A stretch of 39,163 nt of DNA from Kayfunavirus PDP351P4: sequence record OZ035749.1. One strand, given 5' to 3'. The position numbers were made by a program, and so were the translations under genes. Within the stretch, counting starts at the first letter, position 1. Every line of letters starts with the position of its first letter. The notes under the pieces are model-generated. The model was not told the origin of the DNA, did not search any database, and saw only the letters and a program-made list of their open reading frames with translations. Below are positions 1 to 38,804 of the stretch, piece after piece.

Positions 1-29
1 TACAAAACGATTAAAGGAGGTGGTAAAAC

Positions 30-293
30 ATGACGCAGATGGACTTAGAGAAGTTCCTCTTGATGTTAGATACTGAACGTGCTCGACTCATGCTGCAAGA
101 CCTGCGGGATGACTCTAAGCGTTCTCCTCAGCTTTACAACGCCATTGAGAAGCTGCTGGCTCGTCATAACTTTGTGTTAAGCAAGGTGTCTGTGGACGAG
201 AAGACGCTCGCTGATATGGAGGCCCTGAACGCAGAGTACGATAAGGTGCTCTCCGCTACGGAAGATAATGACACTGGATATGGAGTGCAGTAA
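30..293 (+). CDS. DNA packaging protein A / small terminase subunit (T7 gp18-like)
   Basis: 87-aa ORF with GGAGG Shine-Dalgarno upstream; translation contains the RSPQLYNAI.KLL.RH core remembered from T7 gp18; sits directly upstream of spanin and large terminase genes as in T7. Confidence 0.85.
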   Translation: MTQMDLEKFLLMLDTERARLMLQDLRDDSKRSPQLYNAIEKLLARHNFVLSKVSVDEKTLADMEALNAEYDKVLSATEDNDTGYGVQ

Positions 294-313
294 ATCCCTT
301 AAGTGTTAGACTC

Positions 314-340
314 AAGGTCATTACTATATGTAGTGGCCTT
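314..340 (+). promoter_or_regulatory. RNase III processing-site-like hairpin (R18.5 position)
   Basis: stem AAGGTCA / TGGCCTT (G-U wobble) with 13-nt loop, flanked by GACTC upstream and TATG downstream; same element recurs at 4934, 9167 and 16194, with a variant at 4081. Confidence 0.5.
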
Positions 341-403
341 TATGGCTAACACCAACTAGTGGAGGAGACTCTACGTGAAATCTGATAAACCGGGAGGGCA
401 TCT

Positions 404-853
404 ATGCTCGAATTTTTAAAGAGAGCGGCTCCGTGGTTACTTGCAGCAGTGATGTTTGCTGGGGGCTACCACACCGCTAACAATAAGTGGGAGGCTAAGG
501 TCAATGCAGAATACACCTCGAACCTTAAGGCATCGGAGGATACAAGGCTTGCTGTCCAAGCTGAAGTCAACAAAGTATCCAAACGGTTTCAGGACGAAAT
601 GTCCTCGCTGGAAGGCAGCACTGATAGGATTATTGCTGACCTTCAGTCTGACAATAAGCGGTTGCGCATCCGAGTCAAACCAACGAGTGGAACCACGCAA
701 AGTGACGGTCGATGCGTCATTGATGGTTACGCCGAACTTGACGAACGAGATGCTAAACGTCTTATCTCCATCGGACTGAAAGGAGACGCTTGGATTAAGG
801 CCCTTCAGGACACTGTGCGATCATTGCAGCAAGATAAGGAGGTGACGCATTGA
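404..853 (+). CDS. i-spanin, Rz-like lysis protein (T7 gp18.5 position)
   Basis: 149 aa; N-terminal hydrophobic segment ([12 protein letters not shown]) followed by charged, coiled-coil-like sequence; between gene 18 and gene 19. Confidence 0.75.
549..779 (+). CDS. candidate o-spanin (Rz1-like lipoprotein, gene 18.7 position) embedded in the +1 frame of the i-spanin gene; start codon uncertain
   Basis: alternate-frame ORF inside 18.5 encodes a hydrophobic stretch ending in lipobox-like LTISGC followed by a short mature domain; no in-frame ATG nearby, so a TTG at 549 is assumed. Confidence 0.4.
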   Translation: MLSKLKSTKYPNGFRTKCPRWKAALIGLLLTFSLTISGCASESNQRVEPRKVTVDASLMVTPNLTNEMLNVLSPSD

Positions 854-2613
854 GTAAAGACTTAGTGGCGCGGCAGGCGCTAATGACTACGCGTATGAAG
901 GCAGACTTCGTGTTCTTCCTGTTCGTCCTGTGGAAAGCTCTGTCACTCCCAGTCCCGACTCGCTGTCAGATTGACATGGCGAAGAAACTATCGGCTGGGG
1001 ACAACAGGCGCTTCATCCTACAGGCGTTCCGTGGTATCGGGAAGTCCTTCATTACGTGTGCCTTCGTTGTCTGGAAGCTATGGAACAACCCAGACTTGAA
1101 GTTCATGATTGTGTCGGCCTCAAAGGAACGAGCCGATGCTAACTCCATCTTCATCAAGCGAATCATCGACCTCATGCCTCAGCTTCAGGAACTCAAACCT
1201 AAGCAGGGACAGCGAGATGCGGTTATCAGCTTCGACGTTGGACCAGCCAAGCCAGACCACTCACCTTCGGTTAAGTCCGTTGGTATCACTGGTCAGTTGA
1301 CTGGTAGCCGTGCTGACATCCTGATTGCCGATGACGTGGAGGTTCCGAACAACTCAGCGACTCAGGCTGCACGAGACCGTCTATCAGAGCTTGTGAAAGA
1401 GTTCGACGCTATCCTGAAGCCGGGAGGTACGATCATCTATCTAGGTACTCCTCAGAACGAGATGACCTTGTATCGTGAGCTGGAAGGTCGTGGATATACC
1501 ACTACTATCTGGCCAGCTCGTTATCCACGCGACAGGAAGGACTGGCAGTCTTACGGCGACCGTCTGGCACCGATGCTTCAGGCAGAGCTTGAAGAGGACC
1601 CTGAGGCCTTCTACTGGCGTCCGACCGATGAAGTACGATTCGATGATACGGACCTGAAGGAACGTGAGCTGTCCTATGGTAAAGCTGGCTTCGCTCTACA
1701 GTTCATGCTTAACCCGAACCTGAGTGATGCCGAGAAGTACCCTCTGAAGCTCCGTGACCTTATCGTAGCAGACTTGGACCCAGCATCCAGCCCAATGGTC
1801 TACCAATGGTTGCCAAACCCTCAGAACAAGCGTGAGGACGTTCCTAACGTTGGACTCATGGGTGACTCATACCACACGTATCAGACTGTAGGTTCTGCCT
1901 TCAGTTCGTACACCCAGAAGATTCTGGTCATTGACCCTAGTGGTCGTGGTAAGGATGAAACTGGCTATGCGGTACTATACCAGCTCAACGGCTACATCTT
2001 CGCTATGGAAGTTGGTGGTATGCGCGGTGGTTATGAAGACTCTACTCTGGAAGCTCTAGCTAAGATTGGTCGTAAGTGGAAGGTCAACGAATACGTCATT
2101 GAGGGTAACTTCGGTGATGGTATGTACCTTGAGCTATTCAAGCCTGTAGCGGCCCGTATTCATCCTGCTGCTGTAACTGAAGTGAAGAGTAAGGGTCAGA
2201 AGGAACTCCGCATCTGTGACGTTCTGGAGCCTATCATGGGGTCTCACCGACTTATCGTTAACGCTGCTGCTATCGTCCAAGATTACCAGTCGGCCTCTGA
2301 TAAGGATGGTGTTCGTAACCCTATCTACTCTCTCTTCTACCAGATGACGCGTATCTCTCGTGAACGTGGAGCCTTGGCACACGATGACCGACTTGATGCT
2401 CTGGCTATCGGTGTACAGTTCTTCGTTGAGTCTATGGCTAAGGATGCCAACAAAGGCGAACGTGAAGTCACTGAGGAGTGGCTGGAGGAACAGATGGAGA
2501 ACCCACGGAAAGGCTTCGAGTCCATCCACACTGAGTTCTGGGACAATGGGGTCCGGGTAACCCACGATACGGACGACGAGCCGGGGCTAGGGTCCTACGT
2601 TACGTTCCACTAG
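850..2613 (+). CDS. DNA packaging protein B / large terminase subunit (T7 gp19-like)
   Basis: 587 aa (T7 gp19 about 586); Walker A-like GIGKS near the N-terminus; start overlaps the 18.5 stop. Confidence 0.93.
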
Positions 2614-2707
2614 CTGAATGAATAACTATGGGTGAAAGCTGCATGAATACGCAGTTAGTAACCTATGGTTACTACCAGTCTAACCTACTGTTTTACAAGG
2701 AGTTTGG

Positions 2708-2731
2708 ACTTAACTATCACTATAGGGAAGA
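2708..2731 (+). promoter_or_regulatory. phage RNAP promoter (phiOR-like position, after gene 19)
   Basis: TTAACTATCACTATAGGGAAG matches the 11-copy promoter family in this window. Confidence 0.65.
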
Positions 2732-2909
2732 CCCCCGGTTACTTATAGTATTACTGTAGTGAATATACATATGCAGACTTTATGCAAGACCTTAGGAGGC
2801 AGACTCCGAGTTCTTACCTAAGGCTTGCACCGATGGAAGGAGGTGATATTAATCATAATACCTCCAATACAGATAGTCACCGACCATAGATACAGGAGGT
2901 ATGTAGCAT

Positions 2910-3068
2910 ATGGAAAAGACCAAAGCTGTACTTAAAGCTCTGGCGACCAATCGAGCTACATACAGGTTTCTTGCTGCTGTTCTACTTGCTGCTGGCGTTA
3001 CTGCTGGAAGTCAGTGGGTCAGGTGGGTCGAGACCCTCGTATGTTCTCTGGTGTCTGAGTGTAATTAA
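2910..3068 (+). CDS. gene 19.5-like small membrane protein
   Basis: 52 aa; AGGAGG RBS 8 nt upstream; RATYRFLAAVLLAAG resembles the T7 gp19.5 RVTYRFLVV motif; last gene before the genome end in T7. Confidence 0.6.
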   Translation: MEKTKAVLKALATNRATYRFLAAVLLAAGVTAGSQWVRWVETLVCSLVSECN

Positions 3069-3101
3069 CGCAATCATGGTAACGATTCATGAGCGGAAGA
3101 C

Positions 3102-3145: not shown

Positions 3146-3497
3146 TACTGTAGTCAAGGACTTTAGGTAACACCTTAATAGAAGCTCACTTAGGGTCATC
3201 CTACTTACTGGTCTATCCTAGTGTCGCCTGACCTACGGTCCTTGACCTACAGTGGCTGTGGCCTACAGCAGTGACGATGAGTTTTGGACCAAAAGTTTGA
3301 GACCACATCTCACAGTTCAAGAACCTCAAGTCTCCCCATAGGCCCTCTTTCAGTCCAGACCAAAGGCCCTACCCCAGTCTATCATAAGGTTGGACCGATG
3401 GTCAATACTTAAGGTCGACGATAGGTCTAGGCTATGGCTGGAGGTCAGGACGATAGGTAGGGACTATTGGTCTTCTTTGAGTCTCTATCTGTATCAG

Positions 3498-3610
3498 ACC
3501 ATAGGTCACAACCATAGGTCACAACCATAAGTCATAACCTACATCTCACAACCATAAGTCATAACCTACAGCCTCAACCATAAGACACCTACAGTCTAAA
3601 CCTACAGTTA
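3498..3610. repeat. tandem array of about 8 degenerate 13-14 bp units (ACCATAGGTCACA / ACCATAAGTCATA / ACCTACAGCCTCA ...) in the genome-end/left-end region
   Basis: read directly; first two units are identical; related ACCTACRG units also at about 3231-3270. Confidence 0.7.
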
Positions 3611-9679: not shown

Positions 9680-10752
9680 TGACAACTATCAAAACCAACC
9701 CGCACCGCGCTGTAGATTACTCTGAGTCTGGCATTAAGAAGGCACTAGCTGCTGCCGGGTCTCTAGAAGCTGAAGTTAAATATGACGGTGTGCGCCTGAA
9801 TCTACCGGTCCTGAGTGAAGGTGAGACATACTGGCTGAGCCGTGCGTCTAAGCCTCTTCCAGCCTTGGAGTGGATGAACTCTGAGTTAGGGAATGCGTGG
9901 ACACAAGCTGACTGGAGATGGTTCCTGCGTCAAGCTGGCTACGAAGGTGTGGGCCTGATGATTGATGGCGAGGTCATGGTCAAAGGTGTGGACTTCAACA
10001 CCTCCGCAGGTCTCATCCGAACGAAGTGGCTCAAGCCTAGCAACGAGGAGTTCGCTGAATGCTATCCGGGCCGTGGCAATAAGGTCCCGTTCTGGGTTGC
10101 GCGGTCACGACTTCAGGTTGTGGTTTACGGTGTCGTCGACATGACAACCATTGCTGACCCGAAAGCCGAAGGTCCTATCCACAGCGTAACCCGACTGAAG
10201 GCCGAAGCTATCGTACCTCTCCTCCAGAAATACTTCCCGGAAATCGACTGGGTTCTGTCTGAGTCGCACACGGTCTATGACCTTGAGTCGCTCAACTCCC
10301 TGTACGAAGAGAAGCGTCTGGAAGGACACGAGGGTCTGGTAGTAAAGGACCCACTTGGCAAATACAAGCGTGGCAAGAAGTCAGGCATGTGGAAGATGAA
10401 GCCTGAGGAGACCATCGACGGGACCGTATGCGGCCTCGTGTGGGGGACTCCGGGTAAGGCCAACGAAGGCAAGGTCATTGGCTTTGAGGTGCTGCTTGAG
10501 GATGGCATGGTGGTCAATGCTTGTGGCCTGACTGAAGAACAGAAGAACGAGTTCACGGCAGAAGTATTTAACCGCAATGGGATTGACTCCCAGCGCGAGT
10601 ACGAGGAATTGCTTTGTATTGAGACTTTCAACCCTTACGGCGGGTGGCAGTGTGAAGTCCTCTTCATGGAGCGGTTCCCTGATGGCTCCCTTCGTCATCC
10701 CAGCTTCAAGTGCTGGCGTGGAACGGAAGACAATCCAACGGTGAAATCATGA
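9679..10752 (+). CDS. ATP-dependent DNA ligase (T7 gp1.3-like)
   Basis: 357 aa (T7 ligase 359); adenylation motif KYDGVR present (AEVKYDGVRLN). Confidence 0.9.
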   Translation: MTTIKTNPHRAVDYSESGIKKALAAAGSLEAEVKYDGVRLNLPVLSEGETYWLSRASKPLPALEWMNSELGNAWTQADWRWFLRQAGYEGVGLMIDGEVMVKGVDFNTSAGLIRTKWLKPSNEEFAECYPGRGNKVPFWVARSRLQVVVYGVVDMTTIADPKAEGPIHSVTRLKAEAIVPLLQKYFPEIDWVLSESHTVYDLESLNSLYEEKRLEGHEGLVVKDPLGKYKRGKKSGMWKMKPEETIDGTVCGLVWGTPGKANEGKVIGFEVLLEDGMVVNACGLTEEQKNEFTAEVFNRNGIDSQREYEELLCIETFNPYGGWQCEVLFMERFPDGSLRHPSFKCWRGTEDNPTVKS

Positions 10753-10928
10753 TCACACAACTTTATGTCGACACGGCAAGCGGTCAACTCTACGCAGTAG
10801 TAAACGGTGAGCTGTGGTATCGCCAACGCAAGAAGTGGGCCAAGTCCTACTACGACGAAGAGACAATATCAACCATGAGTCATCGCTACCGAAAGGCTGC
10901 TAAGGTGAACAACTTTAAGATGCGTTAA
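10749..10928 (+). CDS. small hypothetical protein (gene 1.4/1.5 position)
   Basis: 59 aa from the ATG overlapping the ligase stop (ATGA); N-terminal part of track ORF 10710..10928 is rejected as overlap. Confidence 0.4.
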   Translation: MITQLYVDTASGQLYAVVNGELWYRQRKKWAKSYYDEETISTMSHRYRKAAKVNNFKMR

Positions 10929-10930
10929 CG

Positions 10931-10970
10931 TCAACCCAGTGGTCTTATGACTGCTGGGTTTCTTTGCGTC
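10931..10970 (+). terminator. candidate intrinsic terminator (early terminator TE-like)
   Basis: AACCCAG ... CTGGGTT 7-bp perfect stem (extendable with mismatches) followed by TTCTTTG; located downstream of the ligase region as T7 TE. Confidence 0.5.
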
Positions 10971-10985
10971 TGGACCCAGCCTGAC

Positions 10986-11009
10986 CCTAAACTATCACTA
11001 TAGGACAAC
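10986..11009 (+). promoter_or_regulatory. phage RNAP promoter (phi1.5/1.6 position)
   Basis: CCTAAACTATCACTATAGGACAA. Confidence 0.7.
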
Positions 11010-11031
11010 CATCAAAACCTAAGGAGACTCT

Positions 11032-11292
11032 ATGTCTAAGAACTTAATGTTCAACCGTTATTCCAATACCTTCCACCTGTCCAACAACCCGTTCGCTTGC
11101 ATTAAGCGCAACGAGAAGCTGGGCTACTTCGGGAAGGCCGTGAAGTTATCACCCACAGTCTTCGCTCTGATTACTCCGGGCAAAGCTGAAGAGGCTCGCC
11201 AGAAGCGTGAGACCGACGTACCTGTGGTATACACCAAGTGGCCTCGCGTTCGTCTATTCATTGAGTACGTGAAGGAGGTGGTAAATGGCTAA
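11032..11292 (+). CDS. gene 1.6-like protein, unknown function
   Basis: 86 aa (T7 gp1.6 is 88); assigned by position and size only. Confidence 0.5.
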   Translation: MSKNLMFNRYSNTFHLSNNPFACIKRNEKLGYFGKAVKLSPTVFALITPGKAEEARQKRETDVPVVYTKWPRVRLFIEYVKEVVNG

Positions 11293-11698: not shown

Positions 11699-11857
11699 AT
11701 GACTGAGGTTGAGAAGAAATACATCGTGGAGCTTGAGGGCCGCATTCAGTCCTTCGAGGTTCCGGTGTACGCAAAGTCTCTTGAAGAGGCTACCCTGAAG
11801 TCCCAAGAGTATGAGGACGCTGGGTTTGTGGTCGGTAGGATTCGTCCTGAGACCTAA
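11699..11857 (+). CDS. host RNA polymerase inhibitor (T7 gp2-like)
   Basis: 52-aa ORF (below track cutoff); [14 protein letters not shown]...[10 protein letters not shown] matches remembered T7 gp2 (SFEVPIYAETLDEA...AGFEVTRVRP); directly upstream of the SSB gene. Confidence 0.75.
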
Positions 11858-11876
11858 ACTATCACTGTAGGACAGA
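11853..11876 (+). promoter_or_regulatory. phage RNAP promoter variant (phi2.5 position)
   Basis: CTAAACTATCACTGTAGGACAG; one substitution at -3 (CACTGTAGG). Confidence 0.55.
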
Positions 11877-11914: not shown

Positions 11915-12613
11915 ATGGCTAAAGAGCAACTGAAGACTTTCACCACTCCGGTAGCTGGTATCGTTGAGCCTTACGCATGGCTGAACAAAGCAGACACCAA
12001 GTTTAACGAGCGTGGTGAGCATAAGGTTAACCTGACATTCGACCTAAGCGACCCGAAGGTCCGTAAGATGATTGATGTCTTACAGAAGATTCACGACGAT
12101 GCGTATGCGAAAGCACTCGCAGACCACGAGAAGAACCCGCCTCAGGTTCAGCGTGGCAAGAAGCCTATCGAACCACGTGAAGGCGACATGCCGTGGATTG
12201 AGAACGGTGATGGCACTGTTACCCTGAAGTTCAAATGCTTTGCGTCTTACCTCAAAGACGGCAAGTCCGAGCCTATCGTATTACGGTTCTACGACACCGA
12301 TGCTAAACTCATCCGTGACGTCCCGAATATTGGAGCTGGGTCTAAGCTGAAGGTCAAGTTTAAAGTCCTTCCGTTCAAGTGGAACGCTGCGACTGGTGCA
12401 AGCGTTAAGCTCCAGCTTGAGTCATGCCTTCTGGTAGAACTGAAGGAGTGGAAAGGTGATGGTGCTGGTGGCGATGGTGGCTGGGGTGATGATGAAGACA
12501 TCGGTACTGGCTACAAAGCGTCAACTGATGGTGACTTCGGGTCTGATGACTTCGGTGACGATGGTTCCGAAGGTGGTGACGACTCCGGCTCTGGTGGCGA
12601 TTACGACTTCTAA
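11915..12613 (+). CDS. single-stranded DNA-binding protein (T7 gp2.5-like)
   Basis: 232 aa, identical length to T7 gp2.5; acidic Gly/Asp-rich C-terminal tail ending in DF. Confidence 0.9.
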   Translation: MAKEQLKTFTTPVAGIVEPYAWLNKADTKFNERGEHKVNLTFDLSDPKVRKMIDVLQKIHDDAYAKALADHEKNPPQVQRGKKPIEPREGDMPWIENGDGTVTLKFKCFASYLKDGKSEPIVLRFYDTDAKLIRDVPNIGAGSKLKVKFKVLPFKWNAATGASVKLQLESCLLVELKEWKGDGAGGDGGWGDDEDIGTGYKASTDGDFGSDDFGDDGSEGGDDSGSGGDYDF

Positions 12614-13068
12614 TGGCCCAATGGTCTGCAAAACGGGGGCACTCTGTGGGTGCCTACCGCTCTGGACTTGAAGCCAAGAACCAGCAGTGGCTGGAACAGA
12701 ACGGCGTCAAAGCGGAGTACGAAAGCCATTATATCAACTATGTGATTCCGGCTTCCGACCACAAGTATACACCAGACTTTATCCTTCCAAACGGCATCAT
12801 CGTGGAGACCAAAGGTATCTTCGATAGTGATGACCGTAAGAAGCACCTTCTGGTACGAGAACAGCACCCAGAGTTAGACATCCGGTTCGTGTTCTCAAGT
12901 TCACGCTCCAAGTTATACAAAGGGTCCCCGACCACGTATGGAGCATGGTGCGAAAAGAACGGCTTTAAGTTTGCCGACAAGTTTATCCCGGTTGAGTGGC
13001 TTCGAGAGGCGACTTTACGTCTGCCTTCCGGTATACTCATCCCTAAGAAGAAAGGAGCTACGAAATGA
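12613..13068 (+). CDS. endonuclease I, Holliday junction resolvase (T7 gp3-like)
   Basis: 151 aa; YTPDFILPNGIIVETKG...DDRKKHLLVREQHPELDIRFVFSSSRSKLYKGSPT aligns closely with remembered T7 gp3. Confidence 0.9.
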   Translation: MAQWSAKRGHSVGAYRSGLEAKNQQWLEQNGVKAEYESHYINYVIPASDHKYTPDFILPNGIIVETKGIFDSDDRKKHLLVREQHPELDIRFVFSSSRSKLYKGSPTTYGAWCEKNGFKFADKFIPVEWLREATLRLPSGILIPKKKGATK

Positions 13069-13520
13069 CTACCTGTAAAGACCTTGAAGTTGGAACACGT
13101 TACAGATTCTCAAAGAACACCCTGCTGAATAACCCCCAATTCACTGATGCTGTTTACGAAAAGCGAGAAGACCATAGCGTAATTGTGGAGAAGGGGTGGC
13201 ATCCTGAGGATTACATCGGTGAGACTGCCAGCTGGAATGGTCACGAGACCTACAGTGTAGAAGTTATTGACCAGCCTCAAGTCCTACCAGCTTCGAGCGT
13301 ACCGCCTGTGACTGTGAAGCGTGAAGTCCTGACCATCGACAAGATTGGTGTAGGTCAGACGTTCATCGTCCACGGAAAGCCTGAAGAAGTTTACGTGAAG
13401 ATCAGCAACTCTCACGTATTCAACCACAAGCGGCTCCAGATGCACACGACTGACGCACAGCGCTTCCAGTCACATCTGAATCTGGTGGTCGTAGAACTGG
13501 TGGTGTACAATGGGAAGTAA
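13065..13520 (+). CDS. hypothetical protein inserted between endonuclease I and lysozyme
   Basis: 151-aa ORF; ATGA overlap with the gene 3 stop and 11-nt overlap with the gene 3.5 start; no T7 counterpart recognised. Confidence 0.55.
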   Translation: MTTCKDLEVGTRYRFSKNTLLNNPQFTDAVYEKREDHSVIVEKGWHPEDYIGETASWNGHETYSVEVIDQPQVLPASSVPPVTVKREVLTIDKIGVGQTFIVHGKPEEVYVKISNSHVFNHKRLQMHTTDAQRFQSHLNLVVVELVVYNGK

Positions 13521-13968
13521 GGTCCAGTTCAACCCACGGTCCCGGACTGACGCTATCTTCGTTCACTGTTCGGCTACCAAACCAGATATGGACATCGGGG
13601 TAGAGACCATCCGTATGTGGCACAAGCAGCAAGGCTGGCTGGACGTAGGCTACCACTTTATCATCAAGCGTGATGGCACTGTGGAAGAGGGTCGCCCGGT
13701 CAATGTCGTAGGGTCACACGTTAAGGACTGGAACTCACGGTCTGTAGGCGTCTGCCTTGTAGGTGGAATTGACGCTAAGGGCAAGTTTGAAGCTAACTTC
13801 ACTCCGGCCCAGATGAACTCCCTGCGCAACAAGCTGGCTGACCTGAAGGTCATGTATCCTCAGGCAGAAATCAAAGCACACCATGACGTAGCACCAAAGG
13901 CGTGTCCAAGTTTCGACTTGCAACGCTGGTTGACTACCAACGAACTGGTCACTTCCGACCACGGTTAA
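13510..13968 (+). CDS. lysozyme, N-acetylmuramoyl-L-alanine amidase and RNAP inhibitor (T7 gp3.5-like)
   Basis: 152 aa; TDAIFVHCSATKP...WLDVGYHFIIKRDGTVE...GVCLVGGID.KGKF.ANFTPAQM...AHHDVAPKACPSFDL matches T7 lysozyme nearly residue for residue. Confidence 0.95.
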   Translation: MGSKVQFNPRSRTDAIFVHCSATKPDMDIGVETIRMWHKQQGWLDVGYHFIIKRDGTVEEGRPVNVVGSHVKDWNSRSVGVCLVGGIDAKGKFEANFTPAQMNSLRNKLADLKVMYPQAEIKAHHDVAPKACPSFDLQRWLTTNELVTSDHG

Positions 13969-13991: not shown

Positions 13992-14207
13992 ATGATTAAA
14001 CTTATCGAATTTCTTGGTCGTCTGGTGGTGCGTGGTTATCGTCGTGCTGCGGTTATGGAACGAAAGGTAGCAGAGAAGGCTGCTGACGGTGCGGCTGACG
14101 CTGCTGCTCTGGCTGACAAGCTGACCATCGCGTCACTGGAAGCTGGCATGAAGGCACGTCAAGCTGACACCAAAGCTGACCAGTTGGCTCAGTTCTTCAA
14201 AGCCTAA
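13992..14207 (+). CDS. hypothetical small protein (gene 3.8 position)
   Basis: 71-aa ORF with AAGGAG RBS; Ala/Lys-rich, no HNH motif recognised. Confidence 0.45.
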   Translation: MIKLIEFLGRLVVRGYRRAAVMERKVAEKAADGAADAAALADKLTIASLEAGMKARQADTKADQLAQFFKA

Positions 14208-14226
14208 ACTATCACCTTAGGGATGG
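14203..14226 (+). promoter_or_regulatory. phage RNAP promoter variant upstream of gene 4
   Basis: CTAAACTATCACCTTAGGGATG; two substitutions relative to the family consensus, so possibly weak. Confidence 0.4.
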
Positions 14227-36314: not shown

Positions 36315-38804
36315 ATGTCCACGATTACACAATTCCCTTCAGGAAACACTCAGTACAGGATTGAGTTCGACTACCTAGCCAGAACGTTTGTTGTTGTTAC
36401 GCTGGTGAATAGCTCTAACCTTACCCTGAACCGTGTACTGGAAGTTGGTCGAGATTACCGATTCCTTAATCCAACGATGATTGAGATGCTGGTTGACCAA
36501 TCAGGTTTCGACACCGTTCGTATTCACCGTCAGACTGGAACTGACTTAGTGGTAGACTTCAGGAATGGCTCAGTGTTGACAGCTAGTGACCTGACCAATG
36601 CAGAGCTTCAGGCTATCCATATTGCAGAAGAAGGTCGAGACCAAACGGTTGACTTAGCGAAGGAATATGCTGATGCTGCTGGTATCTCTGCTGGCAACGC
36701 TAAGGATAGCGAGGACGAAGTACGACGAATCGCTGCGAATATCAAGGCATCTGGTCAAATTGGCTATATTGCCCGTCGCTCCTTCGAGAAAGGCTTCAAC
36801 GTTACAACATGGAACGAGGCCCTGCTATGGGAAGAGGATGGTGAGTATTACCGCTGGGATGGCACGCTTCCAAAGAACGTTCCTGCTGGTTCAACTCCTG
36901 AATCATCTGGTGGTATTGGGCTGGGTGCGTGGGTTAGTGTTGGTGATGCGACACTTAGAGGGGAAATCTCTTCTAAATATGGATTATCAATTATTGGTGG
37001 GTTTGAATCAATAGATGATATTAGATCATATTCATCAACAGCCAGCTTGCCAAACGGTGCAAGAGCATTCTTGTTTAGTTTTCATGCTGGTAAAAACACT
37101 GGTGGTGGTGTGTTTCAGTGGTACAGCAACGCGACAACATCCGATGACGGTTTCTCTGTTATTAAGCCATCATCTGTTTCTGGGGCGGGCCGGTGGATTA
37201 ACGTTAAGCGTGGCAGGCTAACTCCGGAAGAATGTGGTTGCGTACCTAATGACCCATCATTTGATAACGGTGTACCACTTAATAGATGGGCATCACAACA
37301 GCACTGTATTGGTTCCGTTGGCGTCTTTTATAAAACAACTGCTTTAATACCCTCACCGCCAGCGTATCCGCAGTATATAGACGCTAAGGGTATGCGGCTG
37401 ATGACTACCGTACCTGACGTAAACGGGCTGGAACTCCCCCCTGCTACGTCCAGACGTATCACTATTGAGGGCCTTGAGTCGTTCGGTGACCCATCATTAA
37501 CAGTAACAAATCGTAATAAAGCCAACGGCTTCTATATCGCAGGTAGCCGTGAAGTTACGTTAAAGAATATTCGCTGTGAGGGGTGGAAAAACTCTGGTGT
37601 CTGGTGGTTTGAAGTCAACAATATGACCATAGACGGTTTTATTGGGTGGAGGAATGATTGGGATGGTTCAACGCTATTCTCCTCTGGCGGTGATTTAGTT
37701 GAATGGACTTCGAGCGCCGGGTTGGCGAAATCATGCAGTATAAATAATTTTGCGTGTTTTTCAGACGGCAGCCAGAGCATTTCAGTAAACTCACTTTCTT
37801 TTGGGAGAAACATATTAATTAGCAATGGACGTTGCTTCACGTATGACGCCACAGATTTTACGCCAAAGACTCGTTCAGATATCAAAGCTCGTCACGGAAT
37901 TACGATAGGTTACAGCTCCAATCAGACATATGGTGGGGGAGTCAAAGTCAGCAATGTCATTATCAGAGATAAGGGATGGACTGGTATTTATCGGTCCGGC
38001 GGCCTAGATGGAGCTGTTCGATACCAACCAGCAACAGTCTCTAACGTTTCCGTGTACGATTGCGGTTTTGGTATAAATCAAGACAACATCGGTGCTGGTA
38101 TTCTGTTCGGTGACGTAGTGGACGGAGACATGATCAACAACTGTTATGTGGAAGGATTCGCTAACGCTAATAACGGTGCGTATAAAATTCAGGATTCTGT
38201 AGGTACAGGTAAGCTGACAATAGCTAACTGTGTTGATAAAAGCTCTGCTGGCTACGGGGTGCATATAGCAACAGAGTCGGTTAACGTAATGGTTATTGGG
38301 CACAGAAGCATAGAACCAACCGGAGCAGGTATTTTTCTTGAGGCAAAAGGCGGCGCAACACTATTCCGGTCGCATACTATTGACGGATGCCGTATTGAGC
38401 GTGTGACGGACGGTTACGGAATATTGTTGTCTAACGGCGTACTTAGCGCAAATATTAAAAACAACGAAATCCGTGGTACTTCTACGAACTCCACAACAAA
38501 CTGTGCTATTCGGGTAAACCAAAACGGGCAAAACATAAATATCAGAGGAAATCAGATTTACGGTTTTGCATACGGGTTGTGGTACAATACCTATGTGGAT
38601 ACCACAACAATATTCCCGTGGGGTAACAACCAATTCTTCGGCTGCATTAACGCACACCGTTTCGCAAGGACGACCGGCACCAGCGTAGCCAAGGTAGAAC
38701 CAAACTACTACGATGGAGGAACTACAAACATGTTCTCCAACGGTGGCGTGGGAACGAGTAACGGAACGGAAGAATTTAGAGTTAATGGTGCTCCTGTGAC
38801 CTAA
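36315..38804 (+). CDS. tail fiber / tailspike: T7 gp17-like N-terminal adaptor fused to a large beta-helix (depolymerase-like) C-terminal domain
   Basis: 829 aa (T7 gp17 is 553); the N-terminal roughly 150 aa align with T7 gp17 (F.YLAR.FVVVTL, LV.DF.NGS.L.A.DL, EEGRD); the remainder is unrelated, rich in N/G/S/T with repeated rung-like segments ([38 protein letters not shown]) and a visibly more AT-rich nucleotide composition. Confidence 0.88.

Follow-up and report, generated by a model that had tools for sequence, protein, structure and literature searches.

What occupies the junction between the endonuclease I gene and the lysozyme-type amidase gene in those T7-like phages that carry more there than T7 itself? 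In T7, as an earlier note on the sequence studied here correctly stated, gene 3 (10257-10706) abuts gene 3.5 (10706-11161), so that the one leads directly into the other. In Kayfunavirus PDP351P4 (sequence record OZ035749.1; the whole stretch of 39,163 nucleotides was analysed and is referred to as the window), a 151-codon open reading frame (ORF) lies between the two genes at 13065..13520 on the + strand, running from an ATG start to a TAA stop according to both the ORF listing and the raw sequence, and encoding a protein of 17.3 kDa with an isoelectric point (pI) of 6.2. PHROG matches place this gene in the gp3.2 family. The protein is built of two modules, a conserved C-terminal core and an N-terminal half that is swapped from phage to phage, and this architecture, missed at the first reading of the locus, is what the present analysis newly adds.

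The gene itself had already been catalogued, a circumstance that the earlier note overlooked, but it is uncharacterised. The window protein matches two PHROGs of unknown function, 16385 over residues 68-151 (E=2.3e-51) and 15211 over residues 82-151 (E=5.7e-41), and its relatives are annotated as gp3.2 in phages EcoDS1 (ACF15799), K1F (AM084414) and Dev2 (YP_009005126), as 3.01 in CR44b, and elsewhere as "hypothetical protein". A megablast search with positions 12613-13968 against phage genomes returned 304 records, the best of them (95-96% identity) belonging to the Kayfunaviruses 216Ecol046PP, BDX03P1, PhiNW-B1, Vec13 and Pipis, and homologs of gp3.2 itself were located by tblastn in 220 phage records, the family comprising at least 254 protein clusters. 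Its distribution is nevertheless narrow: an exhaustive phmmer search over 1.84 billion representative proteins yielded only 13 clusters, and all homolog-bearing contigs are T7-like genomes of about 39-40 kb. When the homolog of Providencia phage PSTCR2 served as query for another, word-indexed search, 34 further proteins came to light that form a divergent clade; no third clade emerged from a profile search with the core only.

The core comprises residues 82-151 (13308..13517, + strand) and, as judged from alignments and an AlphaFold2 (AF2) model, is predicted to form an SH3-like small β-barrel of five strands. It is 80-97% identical to the cores of the other Kayfunavirus gp3.2/3.01 proteins, such as those of EcoDS1, K1F, CR44b and Dev2, and carries the motif G..F...(x)Y...SNSHxFN....QMHTT...RF, which is present in the window protein. 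The Providencia clade, which is only about 35% identical to that of the Kayfunaviruses, follows the same design, with the core sequence LPAGTFFRVNGKHxPLYLVMSNSHVFNLTEKQMHTT..RFK preceded by variable N-terminal modules. Across both clades Y110, S114, N115, S116, H117, F119, N120 and R133 are invariant, and G97, F100, the run Q125-M126-H127-T128-T129 and F134 nearly so. Charge is less constant, since the Kayfunavirus core has a pI of 9.5 and five histidines, whereas that of the Providencia clade has a pI of 7.6 and a net charge of about zero. In some phages the core stands by itself, in proteins of 74-75 residues such as those of Dev2 and SH4, and also in P0167, a sequence representing 74 member sequences. 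Judged by these alignments, the core appears to be the ancestral and strongly constrained part of the protein, able to exist alone.

What kind of constraint this is can be read from the substitution pattern, which was estimated pairwise by the Nei-Gojobori method (NG86) over eight phages, with 67 codons for the C-terminal part. The ratio of nonsynonymous to synonymous rates (dN/dS) is 0.097 for this part, at a mean dS of 0.69 (range 0.25-1.6), compared with 0.075 for gene 3, which is nearly invariant (dN 0.019), and 0.136 for gene 3.5. Because a ratio of about 0.1 is accompanied by plentiful synonymous change, selection on the core is taken to act at the level of the protein, and the conservation of gp3.2 points to purifying selection rather than to a nucleotide element or an artefact. 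Inside the ORF there is no promoter, no + strand terminator-like site, no Rfam family and no tRNA; conservation of the core as a hidden promoter, an RNA or an overlapping gene was ruled out, given the lack of promoter, terminator and Rfam matches and the high dS. The earlier note had proposed conservation at this locus as a check on its reading, and had named a lack of conservation, or descent from a known gene as a frameshifted remnant, as outcomes that would speak against it. The homologs in 220 records and the purifying selection on their core speak for a genuine gene, and a conserved gene with a dN/dS of about 0.10 is not such a remnant. One member of the family does depart from its frame: in the K1F record DQ111067 (locus L002, 1270-1740) the gene reads ...QMHTTGRTTLHPAHESSGRRIGGVQW* and leaves the family frame after about residue 129. 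That record probably contains a sequencing frameshift, and in the other K1F record, AM084414, the gene is annotated as gp3.2.

The N-terminal half behaves quite differently. In the window, residues 1-70 (13065..13274, + strand) constitute a cassette, here called type A, which was delimited by the AF2 model, the break in homology and hhalign comparisons, and is predicted to be a small β domain of acidic character (net charge -6, pI 4.8). It is followed by the proline-rich linker PQVLPASSVPP (residues 71-81; 13275..13307, + strand), which is modelled with low confidence, is kept in all cassette-bearing Kayfunavirus members, and bounds the cassette on its right, where homology sets in again. Relative to EcoDS1, K1F, ASO2B, phiYIO1-1 and CR44b, nucleotide homology of 94-96% is lost at 13068-13071 and returns at 13269-13278, the loss being seen against type-B, type-D and core-only relatives alike. 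Since homology breaks exactly there, the cassette has been replaced between the gene 3 stop, where gp3.2 starts, and the linker.

How many kinds of cassette exist was assessed with 159 N-terminal parts, which fall into 12 BLAST clusters: type B with 60 members, type A, that of the window, with 31, P1 with 29, D/E with 16, C with 13 and P3 with three, together with singletons. Types A, B, C, D/E and P1 are unrelated to one another and to the core (hhalign probability below 5%); only P1 and P3 are related (95.6%). The notion that the N-terminal domain is a diverged copy of the core was likewise rejected at the sequence level, with no BLASTP alignment, an hmmsearch score of -1.0 bits and an hhalign probability of 1.1%. 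The families other than A are near neutral, with pI values of 6.4-7.2, and the type-B cassette occurs at the gp3.2 locus only. Cassettes can also be stacked in frame, because tandem two-cassette versions precede the same core in the metagenomic sequences P0076, P0089 and P0121, as C+A forms of 222 residues and B+A forms of 226 residues. P0067, another metagenomic relative, resembles a type-B cassette part of whose interior is out of frame.

Cassettes diverge faster than the cores to which they are attached, the mean pairwise identity being 70.8% for the N-terminal part vs 94.8% for the core in type B, and 54.4% vs 90.3% in type A. Among type-A proteins, those of Vec13, PH1061 and PDP351P3 are 96% identical to that of the window over their full length. 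The type of cassette does not follow the genome in which it lies. ST31 and CR44b, with flanks 94-95% identical to those of the window, carry type B, whereas more distant Enterobacter and Salmonella phages, with flanks of 84%, carry type A; type A is found in phages of E. coli K1 and K-12, Klebsiella, Enterobacter and Salmonella, and type B in phages of E. coli, Citrobacter, Hafnia, Kosakonia and Pectobacterium. Because near-identical flanks differ in their cassette while distant ones share it, cassette type is decoupled from both genome phylogeny and host genus. This pattern indicates that cassettes are swapped among near-identical phages, through recombination between the conserved sequences on either side, at the end of gene 3 and in the linker.

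Structure prediction agrees with a division into two parts. Given the first alignment, AF2 produced a confident model of residues 1-70, with block means of 86-92 in the predicted local distance difference test (pLDDT), as a small β domain with one short helix, and failed on the core; once the alignment included the divergent clade, the core was modelled at a mean pLDDT of 84.5, with five strands and a short helix. The protein is thus predicted to consist of two independent small β domains joined by the proline-rich linker. The structures nearest to the core include those of ribosomal protein L2, EF-P, KOW, the DtxR C-terminal domain and FeoA, at scores below the usual threshold for homology. 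A Foldseek search of PDB with the full model gave no match at E<=0.001, and nothing below E=1.9, and a search of viral structures in BFVD found only family members and other unnamed phage proteins of about 75 residues. On these models both halves look like small barrels that might bind a protein or a ligand; the fold, however, names no function.

The absence of recognisable motifs, to which the earlier note had drawn attention, holds up in database searches. Pfam gave no match at E<=1 for the window protein and no family assignment among 34 diverse members, so that gp3.2 does not count as a FeoA protein, and NCBIfam, PDB sequence and PDB profile searches with the window protein and diverse members were equally negative, as was PADLOC for six diverse members. 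Altogether, the profile and structure searches that had been suggested for the locus brought up the two PHROGs and nothing from Pfam, NCBIfam, PADLOC or PDB. A weak similarity to Imm11, an immunity family of polymorphic toxins, appeared at E=0.13 in four of the 34 members and was dismissed as noise. The SH3-like barrels in general, including FeoA, the C-terminal domain of DtxR/IdeR, EF-P domain I/KOW, ribosomal L2, Tudor and CarD-RID, differ from gp3.2 in having no sequence relationship to it in the Pfam and PDB profile searches, and the motif SNSHxFN..QMHTT..RF, found in none of these families by the same searches, is the gp3.2 family's own.

When considered in its genomic context, gp3.2 is a genuine class II (middle) gene, read together with genes 2.5, 3, 3.5 and 3.7 from a promoter of the φ2.5 type. 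This promoter, at 11854..11873 on the + strand (CTAAACTATCACTGTAGGAC, with two mismatches to the K1F consensus), is of the type recognised by the K1F phage RNA polymerase and opens the unit to which gp3.2 belongs; a φ2.5 promoter is annotated at the equivalent position in EcoDS1. The next K1F-type promoter, at 14204..14223 (+ strand) upstream of gene 4, ends the unit, and the two together bracket genes 2.5, 3, gp3.2, 3.5 and the 3.7-like gene. Across the window, matches to the promoter pattern CTAAACTATCACTATAGG(R)A number 11, all on the + strand, against none expected by chance (at 2709, 5609, 9140, 10987, 11854, 14204, 20126, 22947, 23927, 28575 and 36248).

Upstream of gp3.2 lies gene 3 (12613..13068, + strand), which encodes endonuclease I, a Holliday-junction resolvase (PF05367, E=1.7e-81; phrog_945), and its product is a full-length and ordinary Phage_endo_I protein covering Pfam positions 1-147 of 149. 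Its TGA stop (13066-13068) overlaps the gp3.2 ATG (13065-13067) in the sequence ATGA at 13065-13068, and a Shine-Dalgarno sequence of the consensus form AAGGAG, read from the sequence at 13052..13057 (+ strand), lies inside the end of gene 3, seven nucleotides 5' of that ATG. Downstream, gene 3.5 (13510..13968, + strand; PF01510, phrog_822), which encodes an N-acetylmuramoyl-L-alanine amidase (Amidase_2, T7 lysozyme type), starts with an ATG 11 nucleotides before the gp3.2 stop, and its ribosome-binding site GGTGGTG falls within the last gp3.2 codons. Both overlaps described in the earlier note can thus be read in the sequence, and its view of a gene tightly packed into the operon by translational coupling is supported by overlap signals typical of coupling and by the promoters on either side. 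By its reading frames, gp3.2 appears to be translated in a chain of overlapping genes directly after endonuclease I. A gp3.7-like gene of 71 residues (13992..14207, + strand; phrog_1950, 8.2e-25), annotated as gp3.7 in EcoDS1 and Dev2, closes the transcription unit.

Comparison with other phages shows which of these neighbours is the constant one. In every context examined, from Kayfunaviruses as well as from the Providencia clade, gp3.2 directly follows Phage_endo_I, with stop and start overlapping or abutting; the overlap with gene 3 is four nucleotides in most loci (the window, EcoDS1, K1F, Dev2, PSTCR2, phiYIO1-1, IME278, L012 and L013) and one nucleotide in ASO2B, CR44b and PH1061 instead. 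The 11-nucleotide overlap with gene 3.5 is likewise the same in all Kayfunavirus loci examined, except that in PH1061 a gene for an HNH homing-type endonuclease (locus L009, 2246-2617; phrog_59, E=2.9e-29) sits between gp3.2 and the amidase gene and starts at the position of the 11-nucleotide overlap normally used by gene 3.5. The junction between gp3.2 and gene 3.5 therefore tolerates insertion. In the Providencia clade two small ORFs, of about 112-117 and 79 residues, separate gp3.2 from the endolysin/amidase gene (PSTCR2, locus L004, 2705-3278; L013, 3432-3990), the second of them matching phrog_1950 and phrog_5965 and thus belonging to the family of the window's gp3.7-like gene, which in the window follows the amidase gene. 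Because these two ORFs intervene, the constant linkage is that of gp3.2 to gene 3 and not to gene 3.5. T7 has no detectable homolog of the core: when the core profile was compared by hmmsearch, with filters off, with the ORFs in all six frames of T7, the best E-value was 0.96, and the idea that gp3.2 is a relocated T7 gene was accordingly rejected, there being no T7 homolog in any frame.

What, then, might such a protein do? We tentatively favour, at somewhat less than an even chance, a modular adaptor with a conserved docking core and an exchangeable head that binds host or defence factors, the partners and the counter-defence role being what we infer beyond the architecture itself. According to this proposal gp3.2 would be a non-essential accessory protein, the core of which would dock, through the invariant polar surface formed by SNSHxFN, QMHTT and RF, on one conserved partner, either a class II protein of the phage such as endonuclease I or a conserved protein of the host. 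The variable host factor bound by the head would most plausibly be a strain-specific target in defence or host takeover, which the head would either bring to the partner of the core or block. The adaptor model draws its support from the fact that the family is lineage-restricted, that the cassette is dispensable, that unrelated cassettes are exchanged at fixed boundaries, and that cassettes evolve faster than the core. An accessory nature of gp3.2 is in line with the lack of a T7 homolog, with the mere 13 clusters and with the missing third clade. The earlier note had suggested a role in genome maturation, in the breakdown of host nucleic acids or in countering a host defence, each of which is a candidate only. 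From the comparison of sequences, the swapped cassettes and the narrow lineage distribution lead us to lean towards a role in host interaction or counter-defence, while a role in DNA metabolism stays conceivable in view of the unvarying linkage to endonuclease I. A bolder form of the adaptor model would make gp3.2 a plug-and-play counter-defence device, in which the barrel docks on a conserved hub (endonuclease I, another class II enzyme, a host protease or RNA polymerase) and each of at least five cassettes captures a different immunity or restriction factor; we consider this form unlikely. If it were true, Kayfunaviruses would retarget one effector platform by recombining cassettes, and the tandem forms would have dual specificity.

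The T7 proteins Ocr (gp0.3), gp1.2, gp2, gp4.5, gp5.5, gp5.7 and gp5.9 each bind one host protein. By analogy, gp3.2 most plausibly works like these accessory host-takeover and counter-defence proteins of classes I and II, with which it shares being small, non-structural, lineage-variable and encoded by early or middle genes; they differ from it in showing no sequence similarity, and we know of no T7 accessory protein with a conserved core and an exchangeable N-terminal cassette. The logic of a conserved module whose flanking DNA allows a recombinational swap, independently of genome phylogeny, is shared with tail fibres and tailspikes, in which an anchor is combined with a variable domain. 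In gp3.2, however, the arrangement is reversed, with the variable part at the N-terminus, and the protein is one of about 17 kDa, encoded by a middle gene of a DNA-metabolism operon and, as far as known, no virion protein. Among its own relatives, the gp3.2/3.01 genes of Kayfunaviruses share with the window the place between genes 3 and 3.5, the overlaps and the core, but EcoDS1, K1F and CR44b carry the unrelated type-B cassette and Dev2 and SH4 none at all.

Several observations nevertheless weigh against a host-directed adaptor. In T7-like genomes a gene next to gene 3 is tightly packed by default, from which no functional link has to follow. Cassette type does not follow host genus, hence host specificity of the head is unsupported, and pairwise NG86 ratios within cassettes, from few nucleotide loci, are 0.08-0.45 and thus give no sign of positive selection, for which values above 1 would be expected. 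No match to a known anti-defence, defence or other characterised family was obtained, and a counter-defence or host-takeover role is a candidate only. The sole mention of gp3.2 in the literature searched is an entry in a genome table, as a hypothetical protein and with no phenotype reported (PMC4925675), and the BASEL paper on Kayfunavirus Bas105 is silent on it (PMC11990801). As matters stand, gp3.2 is a reasonable but unproven candidate for interaction with the host.

The steady company of endonuclease I suggests a different partner, or rather a different emphasis: the core might bind gp3 or branched DNA and modulate the activity, timing or toxicity of the resolvase, the N-terminal cassette being a secondary add-on. 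That gp3.2 follows Phage_endo_I everywhere examined, even in the Providencia clade, where two ORFs separate it from the amidase gene, that it shares a class II unit with gene 3, and that the Kayfunavirus core is basic would all fit. Yet the endonuclease I of T7 and T3 works without such a partner, T7 having no homolog, the gp3 of the window is full-length and ordinary, and overlaps between adjacent genes are usual in phages like T7; moreover, an exchange of unrelated cassettes next to an almost invariant gp3 would go unexplained, and we regard such a factor as doubtful. Basicity and five histidines, the SH3-like fold near L2, EF-P, KOW, the DtxR C-terminal domain and FeoA, and the position among DNA-metabolism genes could also indicate a small nucleic-acid-binding protein in the manner of Sso7d, KOW or Tudor barrels, acting on phage DNA or RNA in replication or maturation. 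This is rather improbable, since the basic charge is not kept in the near-neutral core of the Providencia clade, and since a single arginine is the only exception to the polar or aromatic nature of the invariant residues (S, N, H, Q, T, F, Y), which are thus unlike a cationic surface. Two related ideas were rejected on the grounds of charge, namely an Ocr-like DNA mimic, because only the type-A cassette is acidic, the others being near neutral and the core basic or neutral, and a generic nucleic-acid binder, because charge varies across cassette types and clades.

The remaining explanations would leave the protein with little or no function of its own. It has to be asked whether gp3.2 matters mainly as a spacer for translational coupling, through which the level of amidase (gp3.5) synthesis is set, as the location of the gene 3.5 start and of the weak GGTGGTG site inside the last gp3.2 codons, and the constancy of the 11-nucleotide overlap in Kayfunavirus loci, could be taken to mean; but strong purifying selection over the whole 70-residue core at high dS, motifs invariant across two clades at such low identity, and the other genes found before the amidase gene in the Providencia clade and PH1061 make this very unlikely. 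The view that the ORF arose by chance, or is what a frameshift has left of a known gene, has the absence of Pfam matches as its sole supporting point; with 220 phage records, a dN/dS of about 0.1, a consensus Shine-Dalgarno sequence, confident AF2 models of both domains and no similarity to a T7 protein in any frame on the other side, it can be set aside almost entirely.

The modular adaptor that we tentatively prefer would have consequences that reach beyond this one genome. What is new is a testable anatomy, consisting of a 70-residue barrel that hardly varies and bears a sharply defined polar motif, a set of at least five unrelated cassettes that recombination exchanges at fixed boundaries, and a gene always coupled to that of endonuclease I. 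Phage therapy and phage engineering make use of Kayfunaviruses such as K1F, LM33_P1 and CLB_P1 as chassis, and in such phages a cassette-swapping gp3.2 would be a natural candidate for a determinant of host range or anti-defence beyond the tailspike. It would also offer a scaffold, already at hand, by which binding modules could be delivered within infected cells. If endonuclease I should instead turn out to be what the core binds, a textbook resolvase would be seen to be under an additional control that is specific to one lineage.

Some minor observations concern the genome as a whole. ARAGORN found no tRNA in the window, and the record of Enterobacter phage IME278 has a pseudo-tRNA (GTG) annotated by its depositors between the gp3.7-like and primase/helicase genes (locus L008, 2695-2770). 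Relative to Vec13, the window is a complete genome of the same type in circularly permuted form, its position 1 corresponding to Vec13 36198; positions 1-3083, with the holin gene, gene 18, Rz and the terminase, align to Vec13 36198-39271, and the terminal-repeat junction falls at about 3300-3500. Homology to Vec13 ends at window position 36949, inside the gene for an 829-residue tailspike (36315-38804), and because it stops there, the receptor-binding part of the tailspike differs from that of Vec13.

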